Position numbers and translations under genes: made by a program. A stretch of 64,000 nt of DNA from Flavobacteriales bacterium (GTDB taxonomy: Bacteria > Bacteroidota > Bacteroidia > Flavobacteriales_F > PHOS-HE28): positions 5,830 to 69,829 of the forward strand of contig JAMLHB010000003.1 in assembly GCA_023957375.1 (NCBI GenBank), read 5' to 3'. The notes under the pieces were generated by a model. That model was given only the letters and a program-made list of their open reading frames with translations. It had not been told where the DNA came from and made no database searches. This document shows positions 3,363 through 34,555 of this stretch, one piece after another (position 1 is the stretch's first letter; every line of letters starts with the position of its first letter).

Positions 3363-3373
3363 CGCGATCACGC

Positions 3374-3516
3374 TCGCCCGCGTTTGCAACGCGGGCGCAT
3401 CACCCCGGTCGTTTGCAACGATCAACCCTGATCCAGCCTCACGGTCCGCCAGGCCATTGTTGCGATGAGCGCGCTGCAAGCGCCTTGATCTTCGCCCGCG
3501 TTGCAAACGCGGGCGA
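3374..3516. terminator. Pair of REP-like GC-rich palindromic hairpins downstream of the T9SS gene, with a smaller related hairpin between them
   Basis: 3375-3397 is cgcccgcg-tttgcaa-cgcgggcg and 3492-3516 is tcgcccgcg-ttgcaaa-cgcgggcga (same element, loop inverted). 3409-3421 is tcgtt-tgc-aacga, sharing the GTTTGCAAC core. The first hairpin starts 13 nt after the stop codon. Confidence 0.5.
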
Positions 3517-3666
3517 GTGGGATTTCCTTGGTGCGCGCCCAGCGTTTGGCCACGGGAAGGCACCACTGCTGGGCAACCAGAAGGCATATTCCAAGTAAAG
3601 AGTTCATCGGTGAAGATAGGCTGCACTGCGGCCTATTTGCTTTGTGCCCGAAGCCAATTTCGAGAT

Positions 3667-3942
3667 ATGCGGATCCTGAAGGCCACCTACAATGAACTCC
3701 TTGGACGAGACGAGTGGATCATCAAGCGCAAAGCGATCATACAACGCGATGGAGGAGCTTGCCGCAACTGTGGATCAAGGGACCACCTTCAAGTTCATCA
3801 TCGGCAATATCACAAATGCCCAAAAACCGGATACAAAGTCGCGCCATGGTGCTATGCGGATCAATACCTGATCACGCTGTGCAACAATTGCCACAAACAA
3901 GGTCACCACGTTCATCACGTCCCCTGCTTCACAGTTAAATGA
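3667..3942 (+). CDS. Small HNH endonuclease (92 aa)
   Basis: MRILKATYNELL...CRNCGSRDHLQVHH...LCNNCHKQGHH is a Cys-box/HNH motif. Its stop TGA (3940-3942) overlaps the next ATG (3939-3941). Confidence 0.7.
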   Translation: MRILKATYNELLGRDEWIIKRKAIIQRDGGACRNCGSRDHLQVHHRQYHKCPKTGYKVAPWCYADQYLITLCNNCHKQGHHVHHVPCFTVK

Positions 3943-4532
3943 TCTTTAAACCCCCTGTTGCCATGAGCTTCATGAGCCGTATCTTCCAAAGAGCAGAAAA
4001 GGACACCGCCACTAAGGTGGCTGTAGCACCAGTTGATTTGGCGAATCCCACCACAACCCTCGTGGAACAGGAACTTTTTATTGACCGGGAACCACCCAGC
4101 CCCACCAAGGAATCCATGCGGACCCTCACCCGATTGGAGGAATTGGCCAGCACTGACCACCGAGAAGCGGGTCGCTTGGATGGGTTCACCTATCATGACA
4201 TGACGATTTGTGGCCAAGGGATAGAGCGGATCAAAGCCGAAATTCGCTGTGCTCTGGAGCAGGAGGTGAATCGGATCGGTCGATTTGTTGACCTGTTGGA
4301 CGTGGAGATCCGAAAGATCCAGGACACCGGCAGCGCCAATTTACTTCTTGACCTTCAGGCCAATCGCGACCAAATGGAACGGGATCGCTATCGGCTGAAC
4401 GAACAGCAGATGCTGGTCGTGGGCAACTCAGGTCTTGCCGACCTCCCGACAACCACGTATGAAGCCGGATTCCGACAGGGATATCGGGAATACTTGGAAT
4501 CCATGAACTTCATCCTAAAATACCAGGGATGA
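3939..4532 (+). CDS. Hypothetical protein (197 aa), translationally coupled to flanking genes
   Basis: ATGA overlaps at both ends (3939-3942 and 4529-4532). No motif recognised. Lower GC than the flanks. Confidence 0.55.
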   Translation: MIFKPPVAMSFMSRIFQRAEKDTATKVAVAPVDLANPTTTLVEQELFIDREPPSPTKESMRTLTRLEELASTDHREAGRLDGFTYHDMTICGQGIERIKAEIRCALEQEVNRIGRFVDLLDVEIRKIQDTGSANLLLDLQANRDQMERDRYRLNEQQMLVVGNSGLADLPTTTYEAGFRQGYREYLESMNFILKYQG

Positions 4533-5527
4533 CCATGCTGCACTTCTTCTCCATCCTCACAGGCGACCGTTACGCGACAGTTGCCAAGCACGGCCCGGTC
4601 TCCCGAAGGAAGGTGATTGCCATGGGAAGTGGCCTTCTGTTGGTAACGGGATTGTGGTTCTTCATTGGTTTCAACCTTGGCATGAATGCATTCGGCATGA
4701 AACCATTCCCCGCCCTCGCGCTCGGAGCTTCAATGAGCGCGGTGGTCTTCTTGGTGGATCGCATGGTACTGCTCAGCAGTGGGAAGCACTGGGGCATTGT
4801 TGTCTCCCGGATAGCACTTGCACTATTGATGTCCTTCCTCGGTGGCATTGGCCTTGACCTGTACATTCTACGAGCTGAGATCGATCAGACGGTTGTGGGC
4901 ATGCACAGGGAGGCACAAGCCGAGATGGCGAGTTCACTTGCCATGGGTTATGCTGACAAGCAAAATGATCTCGCCTTGGTAGTTGAACATGCCCGCCAAG
5001 AGCTGGCTGCAGCTGAGGCAGCCTGGCTCAAAGAGTTGGATGGCACCGGTGGTACCGGCCGCTATGGTGCAGGAGCGGTAGCCCGTTCAAAGGAGCGACT
5101 GGTGCATGATCGAAAGGGGGCACTTGCTGATGCACAGCAACGCGCGGACCTGCTGTCCCAAAAGATCGCTGCTGAACAACTGGCAAGGACATCCACATTG
5201 GCCCAAGCACAACGCGCCACAGGTCTATTTGACCGCATCCACGCCATGAAGAACTATATTGCCACGGACCCCTTGGTGCGGATCGTTTATCTACTGCTCA
5301 CCTTGCTCTTGATCCTTGTGGAACTATCCCCGCTGGTGGTGAAGTACGGCTTTCCCACAACGGCGTACGAGCAAGGCATCGAAGCGGCGAACCACATGCA
5401 TTGCGAGCAGGTGAGGCTGTTGGCGCACAAACAGGAGCAATTCAATGCCCGGAGCGCTGCGATGTCCGTGGAAGAACTCCGCTCCCGGGCACGGTTGCAG
5501 GCCATAACAGAAGCATACCAAGGTTGA
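4529..5527 (+). CDS. Membrane protein with two N-terminal TM helices, a long coiled-coil and a C-terminal TM helix (DUF4407-like architecture)
   Basis: Hydrophobic segments VIAMGSGLLLVTGLWFFIGF and ALALGASMSAVVFLVDRMVLL, a long Ala/Gln/Glu-rich helical middle, and a C-terminal TM segment IVYLLLTLLLILVELSPLVV. Confidence 0.6.
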   Translation: MTMLHFFSILTGDRYATVAKHGPVSRRKVIAMGSGLLLVTGLWFFIGFNLGMNAFGMKPFPALALGASMSAVVFLVDRMVLLSSGKHWGIVVSRIALALLMSFLGGIGLDLYILRAEIDQTVVGMHREAQAEMASSLAMGYADKQNDLALVVEHARQELAAAEAAWLKELDGTGGTGRYGAGAVARSKERLVHDRKGALADAQQRADLLSQKIAAEQLARTSTLAQAQRATGLFDRIHAMKNYIATDPLVRIVYLLLTLLLILVELSPLVVKYGFPTTAYEQGIEAANHMHCEQVRLLAHKQEQFNARSAAMSVEELRSRARLQAITEAYQG

Positions 5528-5613
5528 ACTTATGTCAACAAGGAACGCCCGGACACCCCAGCTTATCCAGTGCCAAGTGCATCCCTTCTACCTTGGCTGA
5601 ACCAGTTGTTGCC

Positions 5614-6642
5614 ATGCCTGTCAATAAGCACGCCCTGATCCGCTACCAAACCTTGGACCGCTGCTTTGCAAGTCGCGGCAGGCAATACTTCTTGGATGAT
5701 CTGTTGGAGGCATGCAACGAAGCCCTATTCGAGTATGACAGCAACGCAAAGGGCATTTCCCGCAGGCAGCTCTTCGAGGACATCAAGTATATGGAAAGCG
5801 CCCAAGGGTGGTCCATCCCGCTTGAACGGATCAAGGAGGAAAACAATCGGACCTGGTACCGTTACGCAGAACCTGGTTTTTCCATCAACAAGCAGCCGAT
5901 CAACGTGGATGAAGCCGCCCTGCTCAAGGAAGCGTTGCTCACCATGGGCCGCTTCAAGGGCATGCCCCAGTTCCAATGGGTGAATGAGCTCATGGTCCGA
6001 TTGGAGGCCGGATTCGGATTGCGGCAAGGTGCGGCGCATGTCATCGAGTTCGAGGAGAACCCCTATTTGAAGGGAAGTGAGCAGATCACCCCACTCTTTC
6101 ACTTCATTCTGGGAAAGCAGGTCTTGGCTGTGGAATACCAGAGCTTTAAGCATCCTGCCCCAACTTCTCTCCGTTTCCATCCATATTACCTGAAGCAGTA
6201 CAACAACCGGTGGTTTATTCTTGGCTGGAATGAACTCCTGGGGCGGCTCACCAATTTGGCGCTGGACCGGATCCAATCGCTTCGCCCGGTGCAAGGGGAA
6301 TTCCTACCCAACAGCGCCATCGATTTCTCCGAATACTTTGAAGACGTGGTGGGAGTTACAGTGCCGGAAGGGTCCGTGGAAAACGTGGAACTTCTGGTCG
6401 GTGGATCGTTATGGCCCTACATCGAGACGAAACCTCTGCATGGGTCGCAAAAAGTGATCTCACGGGATGAGGCGGGTGTTCGGGTGAAGTTGCAGGTGAA
6501 ATTGAACCATGAACTAGTGGCGTTGATCCTTTCCTTCGGAAGTGATGTGGAAGTGCTAAAGCCACCCACGCTCAGGGCATCCATGGCAGACCATGCGAAG
6601 GCAGCTCAATGCCGTTACCAAAAGAGCAAAGACCATGAGTGA
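5614..6642 (+). CDS. WYL-domain transcriptional regulator (HTH-WYL-WCX, BrxR/CapW-like)
   Basis: The N-terminal HTH region runs from MPVNKHALIRYQTLDRCF. The WYL signature is FHPYYLKQYNNRWFILGWNELLGRLTNLALDRI. Its stop TGA 6640-6642 overlaps the ATG of the next gene at 6635. Confidence 0.75.
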   Translation: MPVNKHALIRYQTLDRCFASRGRQYFLDDLLEACNEALFEYDSNAKGISRRQLFEDIKYMESAQGWSIPLERIKEENNRTWYRYAEPGFSINKQPINVDEAALLKEALLTMGRFKGMPQFQWVNELMVRLEAGFGLRQGAAHVIEFEENPYLKGSEQITPLFHFILGKQVLAVEYQSFKHPAPTSLRFHPYYLKQYNNRWFILGWNELLGRLTNLALDRIQSLRPVQGEFLPNSAIDFSEYFEDVVGVTVPEGSVENVELLVGGSLWPYIETKPLHGSQKVISRDEAGVRVKLQVKLNHELVALILSFGSDVEVLKPPTLRASMADHAKAAQCRYQKSKDHE

Positions 6643-9256
6643 AGATGCACATACGGACGGGGTCTATCCGGCAAGGAATATCGGCACGGCAGCAACCTTG
6701 GTCCTGTTAGGGGCCAATCGCGCAATGACTGCGGAGGCCATTGCCGATCGCCTGCGCATTGAAGGGAGCACGGACGATCCATGTTCCGCTTCAGACGTGC
6801 TGGCATGGGCCAATCAGAAAGGCTACTTGAATGAGCAGGGGAAGATCTGGTTTAGCGGATTGAACGAAGCCTTGGTTCTGCGTAATGACTTTCGAGGTGC
6901 CCTATTCTGGAGCAATTGGAGTCGATCGTTCGGATATCAGCGCCTCGCCGCCGCTGCCGTGCTCAGCATCAGCCGGTTCTTGCAGACACACCCGGACCAC
7001 CCATCAACCGATTCCATGCGCCAGCTCCTTATGGCTGGCCTTCACCATGAGTCGCTCGCGCAGCTCTTACGCACGATCGGTGAAATTGCCGGTGCGCCCA
7101 ACCTTCCCGAACGGCTGGGGATTGCAGCCTGGTCCGAATTACGGATCCGGGACCTTGGCCGGCTCATTAGCGCACTGAGCCCAGGCGTAGGCTTCACGGG
7201 GGAACATTCTTTTTCCATTGGGGATGAGTGGTGGCAGTTTGCCCACGCCAAAAAGGTCGAAGGGCGGCGCGCAATTACGTTGAAAAAGGAAATCAGTTCG
7301 CTTCGACTTACCACCGACGAGTTCCCGTATGACCACTGGATACAACTGCGTGCACCTGGTCGGGAGTTCTTTTTTCCGGATGCGCAATTTGCCGCACCTG
7401 CCTTTTTGCACCATCGGTCTCTTGTGCTGCGGGACATCCGGGTCACCGGTTATTGTGCCGATGCGGATGAACGGGATGGACTACGGCTTATGCTGTCGGC
7501 ACAGGGTATCGAGCATGACCTCCATGTCAGAAACGGGCAGGGCGCCATCCCTCTCCCATCCACCCCGGGCACTTCAGTAGTGACCTGCCCGGTGGACGCT
7601 AAGAAAGCCCTGCTCTATGCCAAGGAGTTCTTACGCACTGCTACCCAACCCGGACACCGGCGACTTTTCCTGATCGCTCCAATAGCTTGTTTCCATGAAA
7701 TAAACGCTGAGTGGGATAAGGTGCGCAGGGAAATGGTGGAGCGGGATCTCTTGGATTGCATGTTGACACTCCCGCAGGTAGGAAAGCAGATGTCCGACCT
7801 CGGCATGTTCGTATTGGACAACAACAAGTGGGAGGATGCAAAGGGCCTGGTATTGTTCGGAGGTGGAACCAACAACATGAACATAACCAATCCCGACGAT
7901 CCAATAGTCCGTAAGTTGGATGGTCTGAAAACGTTCGCCTTCAGGATGTCCCTCCAAATGGCAGCACGGGATCGCAAAGGCGCCTGTACGTTGATCACGA
8001 ATGACATCATTCTAACCGATCCCAACTGCCGACTCGCTATAGCATATTGTTATCATCCATTTTCAGTGATAAGCAGTTCTTTCCCATGGGAGGAATTGAA
8101 GCAATTCAAGGAAGTTGGAAGTATCATGGACTTTTCGATCGGAGTCACAGTTGATGCCAATGGAGACATTACACGCGAAGGTGTGATCAAGGCGCTGCGG
8201 AAGGACATGGCCTTGCCGGAATACGTTCGACACGAATTGGCTGAACGATACATGGAACAACAGATGGAGAAGATCAGGACCTATAAGCCCCAATGGGGCT
8301 ACCCCGATGCATACATCCGGATCCCATCGATTGAAGCCCAACTTCGGAAAGTGGAGGGCCTCAAACGTTCATGGGGGCTTCTCCCCATGTCCGAGACGGA
8401 AGGTGTATCGGACGATTGGGTCGCCAACGTGGTGGACAACATCCTGTTGCGCAACGAGGACCCTGAGCAGTGCAAGCTGAACCTGGGTTACATCATTCGT
8501 GAGCTGCAGCGCGTGGAGCGTACCCGTGCCTTGGCCGATGCCGAGGAAGCCTACAAAGCCTACCGCCATGATCTGGGCAACATGACCGGCCGCGTCAGGG
8601 ACAGCATTTCACTCCTGAAAGGGCAAATGAAGAAGCCTGATGCATGGACGGCATTAGCCACGGATACGCATGGCCGCTTGGAGGGCACCCTTTCCACCCT
8701 CGATCATTACTTTGAAAAGATGAAAGGCCTACTCACCGATCAGGAAAAATGCTTCACCAATGAGCACTATTCCCTAACAGCAGTGGAGCTGTCGGATGTC
8801 CTGAACAATGTGATCGGCGGTTTTAAAGATCCCGATGTCCGGTTGGAATACCGGGGTGGCCCTGCCCAGGTATGGGCCGATCGGCAAAAGCTGGAGCAAC
8901 TGATCACCAACCTGGTGTTAAATGCGATCGGCCATGGCAAGGTAGCGGGCAGGGAATTGTGCATCGTTCTGGACCGCATGGATGAATGGGACCAAGACTG
9001 GGGCGAGCCAGGCAGCATACCGCTTTTCATTGGCAATAACGGCAAAGCCTTTGAGCAGAGCTTTGACGAATTGACCAAGCAAGGAAGGCGCTCCAAACAA
9101 AGCAAAGGTGAAGGCCTTGGCCTGTACTTGGCACGCAAATGGGCAAAGGGCATGGGCGGTGAACTGGAAATGGCAAATGGAACGTTTCCTGCTATTGATG
9201 ACATAAGTCCACCGCTTTCCGTCGGCTTCTTCCTCCACCTGCGACAGGTTGAATAA
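6635..9256 (+). CDS. Cytoplasmic histidine-kinase-like protein (873 aa): ~600 aa uncharacterised N-terminal region, putative H-box, C-terminal HATPase_c
   Basis: C-terminal N-box LITNLVLNAIGHG, G1 FIGNNGKAF and G2 GEGLGLYLARKWAKGMGGEL. Candidate H-box YRHDLGNMTG. No TM segments are evident. Lower GC than the flanks. Confidence 0.7.
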   Translation: MSEDAHTDGVYPARNIGTAATLVLLGANRAMTAEAIADRLRIEGSTDDPCSASDVLAWANQKGYLNEQGKIWFSGLNEALVLRNDFRGALFWSNWSRSFGYQRLAAAAVLSISRFLQTHPDHPSTDSMRQLLMAGLHHESLAQLLRTIGEIAGAPNLPERLGIAAWSELRIRDLGRLISALSPGVGFTGEHSFSIGDEWWQFAHAKKVEGRRAITLKKEISSLRLTTDEFPYDHWIQLRAPGREFFFPDAQFAAPAFLHHRSLVLRDIRVTGYCADADERDGLRLMLSAQGIEHDLHVRNGQGAIPLPSTPGTSVVTCPVDAKKALLYAKEFLRTATQPGHRRLFLIAPIACFHEINAEWDKVRREMVERDLLDCMLTLPQVGKQMSDLGMFVLDNNKWEDAKGLVLFGGGTNNMNITNPDDPIVRKLDGLKTFAFRMSLQMAARDRKGACTLITNDIILTDPNCRLAIAYCYHPFSVISSSFPWEELKQFKEVGSIMDFSIGVTVDANGDITREGVIKALRKDMALPEYVRHELAERYMEQQMEKIRTYKPQWGYPDAYIRIPSIEAQLRKVEGLKRSWGLLPMSETEGVSDDWVANVVDNILLRNEDPEQCKLNLGYIIRELQRVERTRALADAEEAYKAYRHDLGNMTGRVRDSISLLKGQMKKPDAWTALATDTHGRLEGTLSTLDHYFEKMKGLLTDQEKCFTNEHYSLTAVELSDVLNNVIGGFKDPDVRLEYRGGPAQVWADRQKLEQLITNLVLNAIGHGKVAGRELCIVLDRMDEWDQDWGEPGSIPLFIGNNGKAFEQSFDELTKQGRRSKQSKGEGLGLYLARKWAKGMGGELEMANGTFPAIDDISPPLSVGFFLHLRQVE

Positions 9257-9261
9257 AATCA

Positions 9262-10401
9262 ATGGACATGAAGATTCTACTGATCGATGACGAACCACAA
9301 GAACAGTTCCGCGCACTCGCGCAGGCGCAGGAAATTGAGATCTTGCATGAACCCGATCGCCACGTTGACGAGTGCTTGGAGTTCCTGCGGCGAGAATATT
9401 GGGATATCGATGCGGTGATCGTGGATGGCAGACTGGATCCCAACCAACAATTTCAAGGCTTGAGCCGAACGACCGGCCGCATCCAGGAATTGAACGGGAC
9501 AAACCATTGGTGGAAACCATTTTGCGTCTGGACCGGCTATGCAGAGGATATAAGGAACGTGGTGGACCAGCATATCCAGGTCTTCGATAAGGCAGATGGC
9601 GGGCAACCGGTCCTGGACTACCTCAAAGGCATCATTGAAGATCTTCCCGCATACAGGGTGAAGATGAAATTCAAAGATGCCTTGCAAGCTTGTGACACAG
9701 CAAAATTGACCCCTGACTCAAAGAACCACATCAACGCCATACTTCGGAACCTGTTCGGAAACAGCACGCTTGATGAAGATTACCCCAAGCATTTACGCAG
9801 CTGCCTTGAATCGATGTTCCGCTCCGCCCATGGTCTTGGGCTCGTGCATGAGAAGTGCATTGAGAAGAACAGGGTGAATCTTACTGCATGTTCCTTGTTC
9901 CTTAGTGGACATCCCGTAGAAAAGCTCAATGTGAAATGTACCAAGCGCCACGCGCCGGAACTGGTCGGGCAACACATACACCATATCCTCAATGTCACCA
10001 ATGCATTCAGCCACAGCGAAGACCCGATCAAGGGCAAGCTCAATGCATATCGTGAATGGATAAAAACACCCTATCTATTGTACAGCCTTACTTTCGAACT
10101 ACTGGATGTGTTGGTGTGGTACAAAGCGTATGCTGAGGCTCATCCAAACATAGAAGACAACAAGAAATTATGGGTGGTTGATTCCCAAGAGGCCGAAAAC
10201 ATCCAAATGATTCCGGGCGTGATTACATTCATCCACCCGCAAGGGTATGGATTTTTCAGTGCGAGCACGGATGGCTCCGAAGCTTATATCCCACACGATG
10301 TGGTATCCGCGAATGAGCTCATCCAGGGGATGAAGATCGAGGTGGCTACAGTAACAAAAGCTAAAGGTCCGGTGGTGAAGAAGCTCAGAATCCTGGATTG
10401 A
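9262..10401 (+). CDS. Response-regulator receiver protein with an unknown middle region and a C-terminal cold-shock (OB-fold nucleic-acid-binding) domain
   Basis: REC: MKILLIDDE...DAVIVDGRLDP...CVWTGY...FDKADG. C-terminus: GVITFIHPQGYGFFSASTDGSEAYIPHDVV...GMKIEVATVTKAKGPVVKKLRI, which resembles the CspA pattern G.V.WFN..KGFGFI...G.DVFVH.S.......G..V.F....G.KGP.A..V. Confidence 0.65.
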   Translation: MDMKILLIDDEPQEQFRALAQAQEIEILHEPDRHVDECLEFLRREYWDIDAVIVDGRLDPNQQFQGLSRTTGRIQELNGTNHWWKPFCVWTGYAEDIRNVVDQHIQVFDKADGGQPVLDYLKGIIEDLPAYRVKMKFKDALQACDTAKLTPDSKNHINAILRNLFGNSTLDEDYPKHLRSCLESMFRSAHGLGLVHEKCIEKNRVNLTACSLFLSGHPVEKLNVKCTKRHAPELVGQHIHHILNVTNAFSHSEDPIKGKLNAYREWIKTPYLLYSLTFELLDVLVWYKAYAEAHPNIEDNKKLWVVDSQEAENIQMIPGVITFIHPQGYGFFSASTDGSEAYIPHDVVSANELIQGMKIEVATVTKAKGPVVKKLRILD

Positions 10402-10879
10402 AGCGAATATTCGTTCCGTCCGCCTCAATCACCCTCTCCACCTGCTCGCGTGGGAACCCCTTCCCCACAAAATACCGCACCACCTTCTCACGGCGGATCC
10501 ATGGGTCGGTTTCCTGGGTGCGCTCCCAGCACTTGGCCACGGCCAATTTCAGTTGTTCGCTTTCCTCCTCCCCATCGATGGCCTTTAAGCCTGAGGTGAT
10601 GCAGCTTGCCGAAACTCCTTTGGCCTTCAGCGCCAGCTCTATCTTCCTGCGCCCCCATCCCTTCTGGCGGCTCTTGCTCACGGCGTAGTGCTCCGCGAAG
10701 CGCGCCTCGTTGAGGAAGCCCTCACTAATGAGCTGCGCAATGACCTGTTCCACATCTTCCTTGTGGCTGCCCCAGGCATAGAGCTTGTCGCGCACTTCCT
10801 GTTGGGCGCGTTCTTGGCGGGCGCAGTAGGCGCGGGCTTTGGAGAGCAACGCGGTCAACATGGTTGGAGGCATGGCCAC
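10385..10879 (-). CDS. recX: Recombination regulator RecX
   Basis: 164 aa with the RecX-like helical repeat pattern (ARAYCARQERAQQEVRDKL...VIAQLISEGFLNEARFAEHY). Its 3' end overlaps the island gene convergently by ~17 nt. Confidence 0.65.
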   Translation of the reverse strand: MAMPPTMLTALLSKARAYCARQERAQQEVRDKLYAWGSHKEDVEQVIAQLISEGFLNEARFAEHYAVSKSRQKGWGRRKIELALKAKGVSASCITSGLKAIDGEEESEQLKLAVAKCWERTQETDPWIRREKVVRYFVGKGFPREQVERVIEADGTNIRFNPGF

Positions 10880-10912
10880 GGTAGATCACAAATAACGGAG
10901 GCAAAGGTTTGA

Positions 10913-10977
10913 TTTGTCCGATGTCTTATGTCCTATGCGGTACGCAATCGCGCATAGGACATAAGACATCGGACAAA
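10913..10977. repeat. Perfect 27 bp inverted repeat (hairpin, 11 nt loop) between rng and recX
   Basis: 10913-10939 tttgtccgatgtcttatgtcctatgcg, loop gtacgcaatcg, and 10951-10977 cgcataggacataagacatcggacaaa, which is the exact reverse complement. Confidence 0.9.
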
Positions 10978-15483: not shown

Positions 15484-17006
15484 GGAAGACCGGCATTCGG
15501 CCCGGCTACGGGCTGCTGCTCGCCTGCCTCTTCGTGCAGACCTCAAGCCAATTGGCTGCACAGGCCCGCAATTCCAACTGGATCTTTGCACCGGGCATTT
15601 GGCTGCATTTCGAGCCGGACACCATCCTTGCCTTTCCCATGGCCGACACGGTTTCCCTGCGGAATGCATCCATCAGCGATACCACGGGGCAATTCGCTCT
15701 GCTGGCCGATGATTTCGGCATCCGCAATGCGCTCTTTGAAACAGTCGCCGGGGGTAGTGCGGCCGAACTTGGCTGGAACGTGCCCGCCGCCAGTTATTTG
15801 ATCCTGCCCCTACCTGGACAAGCCGACCAATACGGGGTCTTCATCAATGAACGGCCACCCGGTTCCCGTGCCGGATTTGTGCAAGTGGACCTGGGCGCAA
15901 ACAATGGGGCCGGCACTGTGCTGGGGGGCACGACCTGGTACTTGGAGCATGCCACCGCCAAGCTTACGGCCACCACCGATTCCACCGAAACAGGCTATTG
16001 GATCCTGCAACATGACGAGTCAGGCGATGCATTCCGTGCATTCCACCTCACCGCTGCGGGCCTTGACCCGGCCCCGGTCATTTCCCACGTTGGCACGAGC
16101 TACCTGCCAGACACCTCACCGAAGGAAAACATTGACCGGTACGGGCAGATGAATTTCAATTTTCAGGGCGACCTGGTGGCGGCCATCAAAAACGGCCCAT
16201 CCATCGACACCAGCAAGGTGGAACTCTTCCGGTTCAACCGGGCCACCGGCGAGCTGCAAATGGAGGCGGAGGTCGGAGCGCTCTATTACGATGGCAATGC
16301 GGGGCCTGCGGGATTGCTGCAAGCCCTCCTGCAAGGCGTGGATTTCAGCCTGGGCGGGTCGTACATGGTTGTTGGGCATATTGACACGTTGTCCACCATG
16401 AACAACTCAAGGATCGTTCGGTATCCCCTTGGTGCACCATGGGACAGCCTGATCACTTCTTCAAGCTCATTGATCAATGGCGTTTCGGGCGATACCCTGC
16501 GGTATGACACCCGGTACGGAATTCAATTTGCCACTACACCCTATGGGAAAATATTGATCCGTCGGCCCTACCGCCCCGCAGACCTGATACTCAATTTCCA
16601 ACACATGTTCGAGATCGCGATCCCCGATCCGGGTCCATTCTCGGGCTGGACCTACTATGCCTTCGCGGGTATGCCTGTACCGGGAGGGTTCCCATCCCCG
16701 TGCAAGCGCTATGTGGATAGCACACCCCTGATCACCGGAATTGGCCAGTTGACCACCTTTCATACCGAGGTCGGCATTCGGCCCAATCCAATGGCCGACC
16801 AAGCTACCTTGTTCTATCGCGGTAATGACAGTCCAAAAAGCGTGGTGTGGCGGGATGCCTTGGGCCGCGAGGTACGCCGGACGACCTGGCGCATGGCCGG
16901 TTCCACCCATACGCTTGAGCGCAACGGGCTGCCCGCCGGGGTGTACTTTGTTGAAGTACTTGGCGAGCGGGGTGTGCTCGGCGCGGTAAAACTGTTCTGT
17001 GAATGA
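15474..17006 (+). CDS. Secreted hypothetical protein with T9SS type-A C-terminal sorting domain
   Basis: Signal peptide MFLRKTGIRPGYGLLLACLFVQTSSQLAAQA. The C-terminus IRPNPMADQATLFY...LPAGVYFVEVLGERGVLGAVKLF fits the Por_Secre_tail pattern. Confidence 0.65.
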   Translation: MFLRKTGIRPGYGLLLACLFVQTSSQLAAQARNSNWIFAPGIWLHFEPDTILAFPMADTVSLRNASISDTTGQFALLADDFGIRNALFETVAGGSAAELGWNVPAASYLILPLPGQADQYGVFINERPPGSRAGFVQVDLGANNGAGTVLGGTTWYLEHATAKLTATTDSTETGYWILQHDESGDAFRAFHLTAAGLDPAPVISHVGTSYLPDTSPKENIDRYGQMNFNFQGDLVAAIKNGPSIDTSKVELFRFNRATGELQMEAEVGALYYDGNAGPAGLLQALLQGVDFSLGGSYMVVGHIDTLSTMNNSRIVRYPLGAPWDSLITSSSSLINGVSGDTLRYDTRYGIQFATTPYGKILIRRPYRPADLILNFQHMFEIAIPDPGPFSGWTYYAFAGMPVPGGFPSPCKRYVDSTPLITGIGQLTTFHTEVGIRPNPMADQATLFYRGNDSPKSVVWRDALGREVRRTTWRMAGSTHTLERNGLPAGVYFVEVLGERGVLGAVKLFCE

Positions 17007-31822: not shown

Positions 31823-32539
31823 TTACTGCTTGGAGATCAAGTCAACGCCAATACCCACCAATGTAATCGCTATGGCAAAGGAGATCATGCCCAGGATGTA
31901 CGCAAGGAATGCCTTCAGGTAGTTCAACAGCTTGCCTTGCCCATAAAACTGCCCGACCGCCCACGTGATATAGGCAAGCACCACCACCGAACCGAACATC
32001 ACCAAGTTGATGCTGAGCAATTCCTGGGCGATGGCAAGGAATGACAAAACAAGCATGCCCATGCCCATGACAAAGCACAGGAGCACCAAGATCTCGTAGA
32101 GGTTGAAGGGGTGCTTGCGAAAGAACAGCTTCGTCCAGAGTGCGATGAATATCCCCATGATGATATTGGCATACCCGTAATGGCCCTGTATCCACGCCCA
32201 AACCGTAAACACCGCCGATTTCACGGGTGGTTGGAAATTCCCGTATTCTGCTTCGATGTGAAAATAGTGGTTCACCACGGAGTAGAACAGTGAGGTCACG
32301 ATGATGAAGAGGATGGGCTTCACCAATCGGTTCCTGTTCACCAACAGGTAATCCCGGATGCTTTTGCCCGGCCTGGCCAGCATCTCCCTTACGGTGTACA
32401 AGATCCCCCGTTCCAAATGCAGCACATGCTGGACCTCATGGAGCAGGTAGTGCCCATCGATCCGCTTTACTTCCGCTGCTTGCCCGCAATTGGGGCAAAA
32501 CTTGGCGTTCACCTCCTTGGCGCAGTTCGCACAGTTCAT
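31823..32539 (-). CDS. DUF3667-like protein (N-terminal zinc ribbon + multi-TM)
   Basis: MNCANCAKEVNAKFCPNCGQ zinc ribbon followed by ~5 TM helices. Lower GC. Confidence 0.55.
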   Translation of the reverse strand: MNCANCAKEVNAKFCPNCGQAAEVKRIDGHYLLHEVQHVLHLERGILYTVREMLARPGKSIRDYLLVNRNRLVKPILFIIVTSLFYSVVNHYFHIEAEYGNFQPPVKSAVFTVWAWIQGHYGYANIIMGIFIALWTKLFFRKHPFNLYEILVLLCFVMGMGMLVLSFLAIAQELLSINLVMFGSVVVLAYITWAVGQFYGQGKLLNYLKAFLAYILGMISFAIAITLVGIGVDLISKQ

Positions 32540-32734
32540 TCTTTTGGCGGGCTACTTTCTTCTGTCCGTTTGATCCTCGTGCAGGTACTTCGCTTCGAGA
32601 CCCTAATCCTCCCGCAAGGTCTTCGCATCGAGACCCCGCAGTTTGCGCGATGCCGCGGTGAAGCTACGCCAATATCAACCCGTAATGTTTTGGTGCGCAG
32701 GGTCCAGAAACGGAGACACTGAGCGAAGGTAAAG

Positions 32735-32955
32735 AGCCTTCATGCGGTGCCGAAGGTACCGGCGTAGACCGCCTTGCCTTTCCGTAGCGGGCCGACATTA
32801 GGACACGAGCGTGGACGCTCGCGTCAGAGATGGGGACACTGAGCGAAGGTAAAGGGCCTTCATGCAGTGCCGAAGGTAGCGGCGTAAAACGCGTTGCCTT
32901 TCCGCTGCGGGCTGGCATTAGGACACGAGCGTGGACGCTCGCGTCAGAGATGGGG
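32735..32955. repeat. Two tandem extra copies of the ~105 bp GT39 5' leader (hairpin + start codon region)
   Basis: Both copies match 31503-31620 (cttcatgcggtgccgaaggtagcggcgtaaaacgcgttgcctttccgcagcgggccggcattaggacacgagcgtggacgctcgcgtcagagatggg) with few mismatches. Confidence 0.85.
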
Positions 32956-33753
32956 TCAAAGAGCAAGCTCGTCAATAATGATATATTTCCGAAAATCAAT
33001 TCCAGGTTTGAAGCGTTTAACTTTACCATCATAAATTATCTTCCCATCAATTCTCCAACGCAGTCGCCAATCATAGTGGGCCGGATGAATAATTGGCCTT
33101 AATAATCTTCTCGTTCGCTCAATAAGCTTTACATTCCATATGTAAGTCGGTGGAGTATTGTCATCTTTTTTGTATCGCTGGTAATTCCATAGTTCAATTG
33201 TTTCATCTGCAAGTTGAGTTAAACTTGTCTGCAAATGTTCTGTCAAGATTAAATAGAGCTCCTTGTTGTCGTCGGAGTTGAGGTTATAATTCTCGGGCGG
33301 GTCAGGAAACTCTACAAAACCCAATCGCTTCCAAAAAGGCTCTGAATCGCTTGGAGAGCATTGCAAATCAACAACACAAACTCCGCTGTCTTTCAGAAAA
33401 TCGAGTACAAAACCAGTCAATTTTTTACCAATTCCTTTCTCGCGATGAGTATGCTTCACCTTCGCTATCTCAATTCTTGCTGTCTTGCCTGTAGTTCGTC
33501 GCCAAGTTGCAAACCCAATAGTTCTATTGTTGAGTGAGATTGTCACCAACTCGTTGTTATCAAACGAAGATTTAATAATGTTCCAATTACAATAAAATCC
33601 GCCTCCAGTTTTTTCCTTCTCCGAACGCAACCACTGTTCTATTTCTTTTACCTGCTTGTTTGTCGGCGAAAGCGATACCCGAAAATTGTCGGTTCCCCTT
33701 TGTATTTCGGCCGCCATAATGTTGCAAAAGTGCAAGGTACCCTCTTTCCGCAT
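32956..33753 (-). CDS. GNAT family N-acetyltransferase, in a markedly low-GC islet
   Basis: Acetyl-CoA binding motif HREKGIGKKLTGFVLDFL. AT-rich codon usage unlike the flanks. Start uncertain (ATG at 33753 or 33717). Confidence 0.6.
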   Translation of the reverse strand: MRKEGTLHFCNIMAAEIQRGTDNFRVSLSPTNKQVKEIEQWLRSEKEKTGGGFYCNWNIIKSSFDNNELVTISLNNRTIGFATWRRTTGKTARIEIAKVKHTHREKGIGKKLTGFVLDFLKDSGVCVVDLQCSPSDSEPFWKRLGFVEFPDPPENYNLNSDDNKELYLILTEHLQTSLTQLADETIELWNYQRYKKDDNTPPTYIWNVKLIERTRRLLRPIIHPAHYDWRLRWRIDGKIIYDGKVKRFKPGIDFRKYIIIDELAL

Positions 33754-33805
33754 ACGCGGAATACGGAGTTTTCAACAACGACCACACTTGGCCATGTACA
33801 TCCCT

Positions 33806-34555
33806 TCACCGCTTCCCCAACAGCCCCCACCCCATCAATCCTGTCCGTGCCAAAAAGTACCGCCAGCTCACGTTCAGCACGCCGAAGCCATACTTCATGC
33901 TGCGGCTGAAGTTGATGCTGCTGGCCTCATCGAAGTACTTGGTGGGGCAAGTCACTTCCGCAATGGCGAAGCGGTTCCAGAAGATCTGGCCGATCATCTG
34001 GTTGTCGAACACGAAATCGTCGGAGCAGCGGTGGTATTCGCACTTGCGCAGCACATCGGCGCTGTAAGCGCGGTAGCCGGTGTGGTACTCGCTGAGCTTC
34101 TCGCCCATCAGCATGTTCTGGGTGAGGGTGAGCAGGCGGTTGGCGATGTATTTGTACAATGGCATGCCGCCCTTGAGCGCACCGCCGCCTAAGATGCGCG
34201 AGCCGAAGACCACGGGATAGACCCCATCGCCGATCACCGCCACCATGGCCGTAATGAGCTTGGGGGTGTACTGGTAGTCGGGGTGCAGCATCACCACGAT
34301 GTCGGCGTCCAGTTCCAGGGCCTTGTTGTAGCAGCTCTTCTGGTTGCCGCCGTAACCCTTGTTCACCTCATGCACCACGATGTGGCGAATGCCGATGCGC
34401 TTGGCCTCCTCCACGGTGTTGTCAGGGCTGTTGTCGTCCACGAGCACCACCTCATCCACGATGTCGAACGGGATTTCGTCGTAGGTCTGCTTCAGGGTGT
34501 GCTGGGCCTTGTAGGCGGGGAGCACCACAACTACTTTCTGGTTTCGGTACATGGT
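33806..34555 (-). CDS. GT2 glycosyltransferase (polyprenol-phosphate sugar transferase, ArnC/DPM1-like)
   Basis: MYRNQKVVVVLPAYKA...VVLVDDNSPDNT...DAD GT-A fold motifs. Start chosen at the internal Met. Confidence 0.75.
   Translation of the reverse strand, partial: TMYRNQKVVVVLPAYKAQHTLKQTYDEIPFDIVDEVVLVDDNSPDNTVEEAKRIGIRHIVVHEVNKGYGGNQKSCYNKALELDADIVVMLHPDYQYTPKLITAMVAVIGDGVYPVVFGSRILGGGALKGGMPLYKYIANRLLTLTQNMLMGEKLSEYHTGYRAYSADVLRKCEYHRCSDDFVFDNQMIGQIFWNRFAIAEVTCPTKYFDEASSINFSRSMKYGFGVLNVSWRYFLARTGLMGWGLLGKR

Follow-up and report, generated by a model that had tools for sequence, protein, structure and literature searches.

Closest described systems

Detocs is a defensive two-component system composed of a kinase (DtcA), a buffer receiver (REC) protein (DtcB) and a REC-effector protein (DtcC), in which the relay from kinase to REC-effector is anti-phage, and it is the experimentally established example of a bacterial phosphotransfer immune signal that we found in the sources searched. 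In PrrC/EcoprrI, a HEPN RNase guards a type I restriction-modification (R-M) system (PMC3710099). Here we describe a block of six genes (g1 to g6) in a 64,000-nucleotide stretch of a Flavobacteriales metagenome-assembled genome (contig JAMLHB010000003.1), the whole of which is referred to as the window. The explanation that we favor, held with about even confidence, is that the six genes are one mobile defense-type cassette with two modules, in which a phosphorelay switches an RNA-targeting effector; that the cassette is a conflict or defense system of some kind is probable. The six genes, and the gene at which they are inserted, are the following.

g1, 3667-3942, + strand: 91 aa, HNH nuclease
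g2, 3939-4532, + strand: 197 aa, soluble, function not assigned
g3, 4529-5527, + strand: 332 aa, DUF4407 membrane protein
g4, 5614-6642, + strand: 342 aa, WYL and WCX domains
g5, 6593-9256 (alternative start 6635), + strand: 873/887 aa, histidine kinase
g6, 9262-10401, + strand: 379 aa, response regulator with REC, HEPN-like domain and OB fold
recX, 10385-10879, - strand: insertion target, with RecX_HTH1/2/3 Pfam domains

Like Detocs, the cassette has a cytoplasmic sensor kinase and a response regulator that carries an effector domain, in place of a DNA-binding one, as its output, and the predicted logic is shared: infection leads to His~P, then to Asp~P and then to an active effector. It differs in that no stand-alone buffer REC gene lies in the insert (only g6 has a REC domain, and g1-g6 alone make up the insert as defined against an empty site), in that its sensor is a module derived from a methyltransferase (MTase) and a target recognition domain (TRD) where Detocs has TPR repeats, in that its effector is HEPN-like with an OB fold where Detocs has a PNP ATP nucleosidase, and in that a WYL regulator is integral to it. 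The resemblance to PrrC-EcoprrI and other R-M-embedded HEPN RNases lies in distant relatives of the locus, which have a HEPN-type protein next to type I hsdM, hsdS and hsdR, an adjacency that suggests, by analogy, a second-line RNA-level response coupled to R-M. However, control of PrrC lies with its ABC-ATPase domain and its direct contact with EcoprrI, whereas a kinase-REC relay is predicted here; g6 has a receiver at its N-terminus where PrrC and RloC have an ABC-type ATPase; and the canonical Rx4-6H motif is absent from g6, as are any R-M genes from the window copy. The locus thus belongs neither with Detocs (no buffer REC, TPR or PNP) nor with the PrrC type (no ABC ATPase, no Rx4-6H).

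From TOTE the locus is set apart by the absence of TPR and TBP domains from all six proteins, the only link being a weak S1CSD-TOTE-2 match on the OB fold of g6. The Response_reg_2/HEF_HK pairs (PMC8011034) are likewise non-canonical kinase-like and receiver-like proteins enriched next to R-M, but g5 and g6 give no PF19191 or PF19192 match, and those pairs go with type II/C5-methylase systems, paraMORC and HATPase_c_3. There may also be some resemblance to the methylation-associated defense system MADS, whose eight genes include a kinase, an ATPase, a nuclease and a methyltransferase.

A preliminary description of the window had put the block forward as an undescribed defense or signaling locus, a reading that the R-M context of related genes and the negative database and literature searches support, a role in defense being probable. 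Hidden Markov model searches of the six proteins against Pfam and PADLOC gave the domains reported below and no defense-system model (g5 and g6 were searched against PADLOC v2.0.0 at E ≤ 0.01, g5 against Pfam at E ≤ 0.01 and the g6 family at E ≤ 1). PADLOC v2.0.0, a release that may not contain Detocs models, returned nothing for g1, g2, g5 and g6 and matched no known defense system. NCBIfam gave sub-threshold kinase similarities only, the PHROGs were informative for the HNH protein alone, and the literature searched on DUF4407/PF14362, on N6_Mtase with HATPase_c and WYL, and on HEPN with a receiver held no description of the system. Neither the kinase/regulator pair nor the triad that it forms with the WYL gene was found described in these databases and publications.

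A putative methyltransferase-derived kinase and its predicted partner

g5 and g6 are predicted phosphotransfer partners, their relation being seen as adjacency (a 5-nt gap) and co-conservation only. Their landmarks are listed here.

MTase-like region of g5, from about 7301, + strand
Position of MTase motif I in g5, 7400-7429, + strand
Position of MTase motif IV in g5, 7577-7597, + strand
H-box His645 of g5, 8567-8569, + strand
N box of g5, 8909-8938, + strand
G boxes of g5, 9032-9127, + strand
REC domain of g6, aa 1-125, with D55 at 9424-9426
HEPN-like helical domain of g6, aa 126-303, with R179 at 9796-9798, E183 at 9808-9810 and H251 at 10012-10014
S1/CSD-like OB fold of g6, aa 304-379

Pfam confirms the histidine kinase-like ATPase that had been noticed in g5 (HATPase_c at 4e-8), and the two-component kinase core is complete, with a phospho-acceptor His (YRH645DLGN), an N box (NLVLNAIGHG) and G boxes (GNNGKAF and GEGLGLY); the H-box His is kept in all 14 aligned members of the g5 family, and the N and G boxes are likewise retained among the relatives. 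From residue 223 on, the g5 family aligns with a family of N6_Mtase-TRD-HATPase_c proteins (hhalign probability 98.6%, E 8e-16, 556 columns) that has true Pfam N6_Mtase, Methylase_S and HATPase_c matches. Judged by sequence, g5 belongs, as a diverged member, to these methyltransferase-kinases, whose sensor half is homologous to the N6_Mtase and Methylase_S-type TRD of type I and type IIG N6-adenine MTases, from which it differs in being fused to a DHp/HATPase_c kinase core. Motif I is NPFAGxASF and motif IV NPPF/Y, with motif IV varying across the family (NPPF, NPPY, NPPL, SPPL, FPPI, IPPT); in g5 the corresponding positions read AFLHHRSLVL and VVTCPVD, so that both motifs are lost, there is no Pfam N6_Mtase match, and g5 does not qualify as an active N6-adenine methyltransferase. 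No domain was assigned to its first 222 residues, and four close homologues were found among 5.8 billion proteins.

The preliminary description had read g6 as a REC protein with a cold-shock domain. The receiver stands, with the acidic pocket, Asp, Thr/Ser and Lys of two-component receivers present and D55 kept in 116, T/S91 in 115 and K110 in 114 of 118 family representatives. The OB fold is weak in the window protein (PF22707, S1CSD-TOTE-2, E 0.14) but reaches 7e-6 at best among its homologues, and the helical domain between the two had been missed. For this middle domain there is no Pfam match, and Foldseek returned no significant match, though HEPN toxins were best by TM-score. The HEPN structures listed for it are YutE, AF0298 and the HEPN toxins of HEPN-MNT pairs (8.7-8.1), followed by the Sacsin HEPN (7.5), Csm6 (7.1), AbiA (6.9), LsoA (6.6), and RnlA and HepS (6.4), and we hold its fold to be HEPN-like with moderate confidence. 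R179 and H251 occur in all 118 representatives and E183 in 117, with R179 and E183 sitting on an earlier helix than H251; R/K187 occurs in 91, and E183-x3-R187 matches the Ex3[KR] motif described for helix 1 of HEPN domains (PMC3710099). A zinc site (H196/C199/C226/H230) was considered as a family feature and rejected, as it is kept in one subfamily only.

A profile search with the middle domain found 657 clusters at 50% identity, 401 of them at E ≤ 1e-10; nearly all are proteins of ~380-420 aa with the domain at ~135-320, that is, of REC-X-OB architecture, and all sampled members are annotated as 'hypothetical'. The public record of g6 starts two codons later. In a cassette copy at another locus (L125), an 815-aa protein has an N-terminal part that aligns with the MTase/TRD part of the kinase family (hhalign E 9e-42) and ~235 C-terminal residues that align with the HEPN-like domain and OB fold of g6 (hhalign E 1e-10); inspection of its C-terminal sequence, made with no separate profile, revealed no kinase-box or receiver segment. 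By virtue of this fusion, sensor and effector appear functionally linked, with the kinase-REC pair as a relay placed between them. In three further loci (L114-L116), a WYL gene is followed directly by a gene for a 431-455-aa protein with the HEPN-like domain and no Pfam match at its N-terminus, and no kinase gene lies upstream.

Related triads next to restriction-modification genes

Homologues of g6 at 27-42% identity were examined at 36 loci, which represent 19 distinct clusters, and recur there in a triad whose order is a WYL-WCX gene, a gene for a 790-1230-aa N6_Mtase/Methylase_S/HATPase_c protein, and the REC protein gene. Of the 17 clusters that extend upstream of the regulator at all, 14 have the methyltransferase-kinase gene immediately before it, either complete or cut down to its 3' end by the edge of the contig, and of the eight in which a WYL gene would fit, seven have one. 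An HsdM-like gene follows the regulator in 9 of 12 informative clusters, and in most of those nine hsdS and hsdR lie further down; in most distant loci, the gap between regulator and hsdM is 1-90 nt. AbiE, McrBC, a PLD nuclease, HsdR and large or giant helicases also occur near the triads. One cultured, plasmid-borne example, on pFM-G13 of Myroides odoratimimus (NZ_CP037428.1, 26821-41719), has its genes annotated as 'N-6 DNA methylase' and 'hypothetical protein' and makes the model set out below testable.

The HNH, g2, DUF4407 and WYL genes

That g1 is a standalone HNH nuclease, as the preliminary description had it, is supported by the PHROGs (HNH families at 6e-11 to 1e-3) but not by Pfam, which gives a weak zinc ribbon only; the protein has CxxC at aa 32, HH at aa 44-45 and CNNCH at aa 72, and is 66-77% identical in four further cassettes (L001, L004, L123 and L125). 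Of the two proteins that had been left without a name, g2 stays so, with no match in Pfam, NCBIfam, PHROGs or PADLOC, whereas g3 matches PF14362 (DUF4407) at 3.7e-38. g2 is nonetheless conserved at 42-77% and is always encoded between the HNH and DUF4407 genes in all cassette copies. A hydropathy scan of g3 gives four transmembrane-like segments (about 28-52, 62-83, 88-115 and 243-275) around a long helical loop, and PADLOC returned a marginal match (E 0.009) to a candidate model of undefined function. Homologues of g3 have 47-83% identity, and all those whose contig was examined (L001/L002, L004, L122-L127) lie in the same cassette. A distant DUF4407 member (P0024) has PadR and glycosidase genes as its neighbors, so a link to defense does not hold for the Pfam family in general.

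g4 was earlier recognized as a WYL regulator, and Pfam finds both WYL (PF13280, 2.9e-10) and WCX (PF25583, 8e-13) domains in it; presumably it also has an N-terminal helix-turn-helix, which Pfam did not detect. Its PADLOC matches were to generic CRISPR-associated WYL models only (1.7e-25), and phmmer relates it, with E-values between 1e-66 and 1e-119, to the WYL gene found ahead of the kinase in distant triads. For 16% of BrxR homologues, a type I R-M neighbor is reported (PMC9122601). Apart from the helix-turn-helix in Pfam, g4 has the WYL-WCX architecture of BrxR and CapW at the head of a defense-type gene set, but it gives no detectable match to the solved BrxR or CapW structures, phmmer against PDB sequences returning only PafBC-like chains (E 1e-3).

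Acquisition and movement of the cassette

The six genes are very probably a horizontally acquired cassette, since an exact empty site exists, the block is rare in relatives, and related cassettes occupy three targets, the 3' end of which is repeated in every case. The preliminary description had argued for acquisition from base composition, and these lines of evidence now go beyond it. Its account of the layout also agrees with the open reading frame (ORF) calls on the window: 3667-10401 holds six co-oriented, tightly packed ORFs on the + strand, with overlaps of 4 nt at g1/g2 and g2/g3, a gap of 86 nt at g3/g4 and an overlap of 8 nt at g4/g5 (start 6635 used). At the right edge, where an overlap with the recX 3' end had been noted, g6 runs 17 nt into the stop region of convergent recX, and the flanking genes are by Pfam, as proposed, a CHU_C/type IX secretion system (T9SS) protein, RecX and RNase G (rng). 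The block is indeed AT-richer than its flanks, with a GC content of 53.5% for 3517-10401 against 61.3% for the rest of the window, the lowest value among all sliding windows of 7 kb (mean 60.3%, sd 2.6%) and a GC3 of 0.55-0.67 against 0.71-0.86 in the T9SS gene, recX and rng. Uniform composition with conserved synteny, which would have spoken against acquisition, is contradicted by these values and by the loci of relatives.

The rng-recX region was retrieved from 80 related species. The recX-rng arrangement is kept in most of them, and the six genes are present in one only (L021, of the same lineage as L001; rng 85% identical); 78 of the 80 loci lack the block, among them those of the closest relatives (rng 91-95% identical). 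One relative (L010) has the exact empty site, in which recX is followed by ~57 nt and then the orthologue of the T9SS gene, window ~3363-10435 being missing there. Matches in blastn to L007, L009, L010 and L011 end at window 10424-10436, and alignment of the occupied with the empty site places the left junction at ~3578 and the right at ~10421-10436, with an inserted block of ~6.9 kb. L001 has a direct repeat of the recX 3' end, 145 bp long and 95% identical (1490-1633 / 8478-8622), on either side of the block, and the left recX-fragment repeat is likewise present in L004. The corresponding features of the window are these.

Left direct-repeat copy, 3523-3555, - strand: 33-bp remnant of a displaced recX 3' fragment, 88% identical to 10510-10542
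Left end of inserted DNA, 3578-3666, + strand: ~90-nt leader upstream of the HNH gene, with the break point between recX fragment and island visible in the alignment
Right junction, 10421-10436, no strand: nucleotide homology to island-free relatives restarts, 36-51 nt inside the recX 3' end
Right direct-repeat copy, 10510-10542: inside the recX 3' region

The leader is common to the recX-site copies (L001, L004) and to a copy at alaS (L123), and is a candidate promoter/operator by sequence. It contains an imperfect inverted repeat, GTGAAG-N5-CTGCAC at 3610-3626, the counterpart of which in L123 (about 9070-9090) is perfect (GTGCAG-N5-CTGCAC); this repeat is a candidate operator for the WYL protein. 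A promoter/terminator scan performed no better than chance.

Further cassettes were reached through homologues of g3. The six-gene form occurs at recX in the window, L001 and L004, and the same six genes in the same order, with 37-68% protein identity, occur at the alaS 3' end in L122-L124, flanked in L123 by repeat copies of the alaS 3' region that are 146 bp long (97%). In L125-L127, at the rlmN 3' end, HNH-g2-DUF4407-WYL is followed by a single gene, for the 815-aa protein, in place of g5-g6, with rlmN 3'-end repeats of 70 and 127 bp. The GC content of the cassette is below that of its flanks in every host. Direct target repeats at both ends (145 bp in L001, 146 bp in L123, the 33-bp remnant in the window) are a feature of integrase islands, but no recombinase gene lies inside: Pfam, NCBIfam and PHROGs found no recombinase or transposase among the six window products, and the inserts of L122-L127 likewise have no recombinase. 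The repeated 3'-end duplication without a recombinase poses a separate puzzle of how small defense cassettes move in Bacteroidota. A phage or satellite origin was rejected, the g6 family having one viral-contig match and g3 one 40-residue match at E 3e-4, which was discounted.

Some of these loci contain additional elements. In L125 (10033-11193; also in L126), the 127-bp direct repeat of the rlmN 3' region brackets a DUF433-PIN toxin-antitoxin pair (10235-10830), and as this repeat is of the same kind, the 3'-end-duplication mechanism may be general in these genomes. The 70-bp rlmN-end repeat of L125 (300-369 / 10866-10935) encloses a ResIII helicase gene, a DprA/SLOG-like gene and the cassette, and together the repeats look like nested insertions at the 3' end of one gene. 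Between the regulator gene and alaS, L123 has about three tandem copies of a ~150-200-bp repeat (16438-16941) and an extra 162-aa ORF (16044-16532) with no Pfam match.

Proposed mechanism and alternative explanations

The insertion, the domain architectures, the invariant polar residues of catalytic type, the triad with its R-M neighborhood and the direct sensor-effector fusion are observed, whereas the defense role, the nature of the signal, the RNase activity and the coupling of two modules are inferred. In the mechanism that we propose, g4-g5-g6 would form a first module, a cytoplasmic phosphorelay with a nucleic-acid-targeting output. The MTase and TRD sensor of g5, which is predicted to be soluble and has lost its catalytic motifs, would bind a cue, most likely DNA that is foreign or lacks modification, or else a phage anti-restriction protein with affinity for MTase-like surfaces. 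g5 would then autophosphorylate at His645, from which the phosphate would move to Asp55 of g6, and phosphorylation of REC would free the HEPN-like domain (R179/E183/H251). Aided by the OB fold, this domain would act on RNA, binding and probably cleaving it, with the result that growth or phage development stops. Transcription of the operon would be under the control of g4 (WYL-WCX). The second module, g1-g2-g3, sits where type I R-M genes adjoin the triad elsewhere and would probably be a DNA- and/or membrane-level effector arm. We propose the kinase-to-HEPN RNase mechanism itself with somewhat less than even confidence.

More doubtful is the broader proposal of a widespread immune module, in which an MTase-derived kinase sensor switches a HEPN-like/OB RNA-targeting regulator to guard or back up type I R-M and which is rewired in the window to an HNH and DUF4407 module, combined with recombinase-free spread at the 3' ends of housekeeping genes that duplicates ~145 bp. 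If true, it would place beside Detocs a second defensive two-component family that differs from it in structure, would show a DNA methyltransferase recycled as an infection sensor, and would bear on how R-M-linked back-ups detect evaded restriction. The cassette would then combine a defensive phosphorelay with an R-M-linked HEPN-type effector, in a window form that is rare, rewired and mobile.

Several findings weigh against a single defensive phosphorelay cassette. Homologues of g1-g3 were found in none of the 36 distant triad loci, and the two modules may be functionally independent. The window cassette has no R-M partner, and its sensor is MTase-dead, with motifs I and IV lost. The active site of g6 is non-canonical in that the Arg of Rx4-6H is absent, positions -4 to -7 from H251 never being Arg (T/N/G/I) in the 118 representatives, and the domain could on that account be a non-catalytic RNA binder. 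It was also considered that the TRD/MTase parts of the kinase had been copied from the adjacent HsdS/HsdM, which was rejected, as identity is only 21-27% in six loci and there is accordingly no sign of shared sequence specificity. Lastly, the carriers of the six-gene form are only a few uncultured Flavobacteriales.

Of the alternatives, the one that survives best, which we consider unlikely, is that the triad is regulatory and not an effector. A phosphorylation-controlled binder of RNA or single-stranded DNA would tune the adjacent defense genes (hsdMS, or HNH-g2-DUF4407 here), for instance by antitermination or by translational control according to methylation state or DNA damage. Cold-shock and S1 folds are classic RNA chaperones and antiterminators, the regulator lies immediately upstream of hsdM at the short gaps given above, and the module already includes a WYL regulator. 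The Arg of Rx4-6H is missing from g6, and HEPN domains without this motif have been proposed as RNA binders, for example MtlR (PMC3710099). On the other hand, the invariance of R179, E183 and H251 across 118 diverse representatives is more than a binding surface usually requires, and in the window, L001, L004 and L123 no cassette gene follows the regulator, only a convergent host gene, which leaves it without a downstream cis target. The MTase-like-HEPN-OB fusion of L125, moreover, resembles defense sensor-effector fusions.

Quite improbable, in our judgment, is that two unrelated systems, HNH-g2-DUF4407 and the WYL-kinase-regulator triad, travel together and share no function. Defense islands often juxtapose independent systems (PMC9122601), the triad is widespread without g1-g3, and these three have no homologue at any of the 36 distant loci. 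Against such a chance pairing, the order and tight spacing of g1-g4 are kept in three insertion contexts and the six-gene order in two, at identities down to 37-68%; every close DUF4407 homologue with an examined contig lies in the cassette; and L125 keeps HNH-g2-DUF4407-WYL while swapping kinase and regulator for a fused sensor-effector.

We regard it as very unlikely that the cassette is primarily a selfish mobile element, with the HNH protein as a homing-type endonuclease that cuts empty targets and the rest as cargo or addiction genes. The insert has no recombinase, its sole recognizable nuclease is the HNH protein, the HNH gene adjoins the left repeat in all copies, and the three target genes share the same style of 3'-end duplication; yet a duplication of 145 bp of target is not what one would expect from homing through double-strand-break repair, and a repeat of this kind also encloses the DUF433-PIN pair of L125, which has no HNH gene. 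Viral contigs gave one match to the g6 family and a marginal 40-residue match to g3, and homing would leave the conserved phosphorelay unaccounted for. An ordinary, vertically inherited housekeeping signaling locus, suggested by a second species (L001/L021) in which the block likewise adjoins recX-rng, is scarcely credible given the absence of the block from the closest relatives (rng 91-95% identical), including the exact empty site, the duplicated target DNA at its flanks, its deviant composition and the alaS and rlmN sites in other genomes.

Other features of the region

The palindromes that the preliminary description had noted at the left edge of the block as REP-like exist (3376-3396 and 3494-3514; two in the window against 0.06 expected), but they do not mark the edge of the island. 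They belong to a separate element resembling a miniature inverted-repeat transposable element (MITE), each arm of which is itself a GC-rich hairpin.

MITE/REP-like element, 3367-3523, no strand: 157 bp, with 31-bp terminal inverted repeats (arms 3367-3397 and 3493-3523) that are 94% complementary

Copies of this element adjoin recX in the island-free L009 (91%) and L007 (76%), so that it is not part of the island, and its palindromes were rejected as island ends or att sites, being MITE-like terminal repeats that are found without the island. L010 has a partial copy elsewhere.

The spacer between rng and recX is only ~120 nt in the window and varies among relatives from ~50 nt to 5.4 kb (L028, L029, L035, L047, L054, L060, L079). 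Its contents include T9SS-sorted proteins, a NACHT-pentapeptide STAND NTPase (L028), a metallophosphatase (L054) and an ordinary HisKA kinase (L060), and the recX neighborhood is therefore a variable hotspot on both sides. In L001, a 79-aa nucleotidyltransferase (NTP_transf_2/Polbeta; 9030-9269) that resembles the MNT half of a HEPN-MNT pair is encoded between recX and rng.

An Rfam scan of the window found no RNA family. A second low-GC patch, at 32000-34000 (49.4% over 2 kb), has ORFs on the minus strand at 31823-32539 (zinc-ribbon membrane protein) and 32956-33753 (265 aa), and may be another acquired segment.

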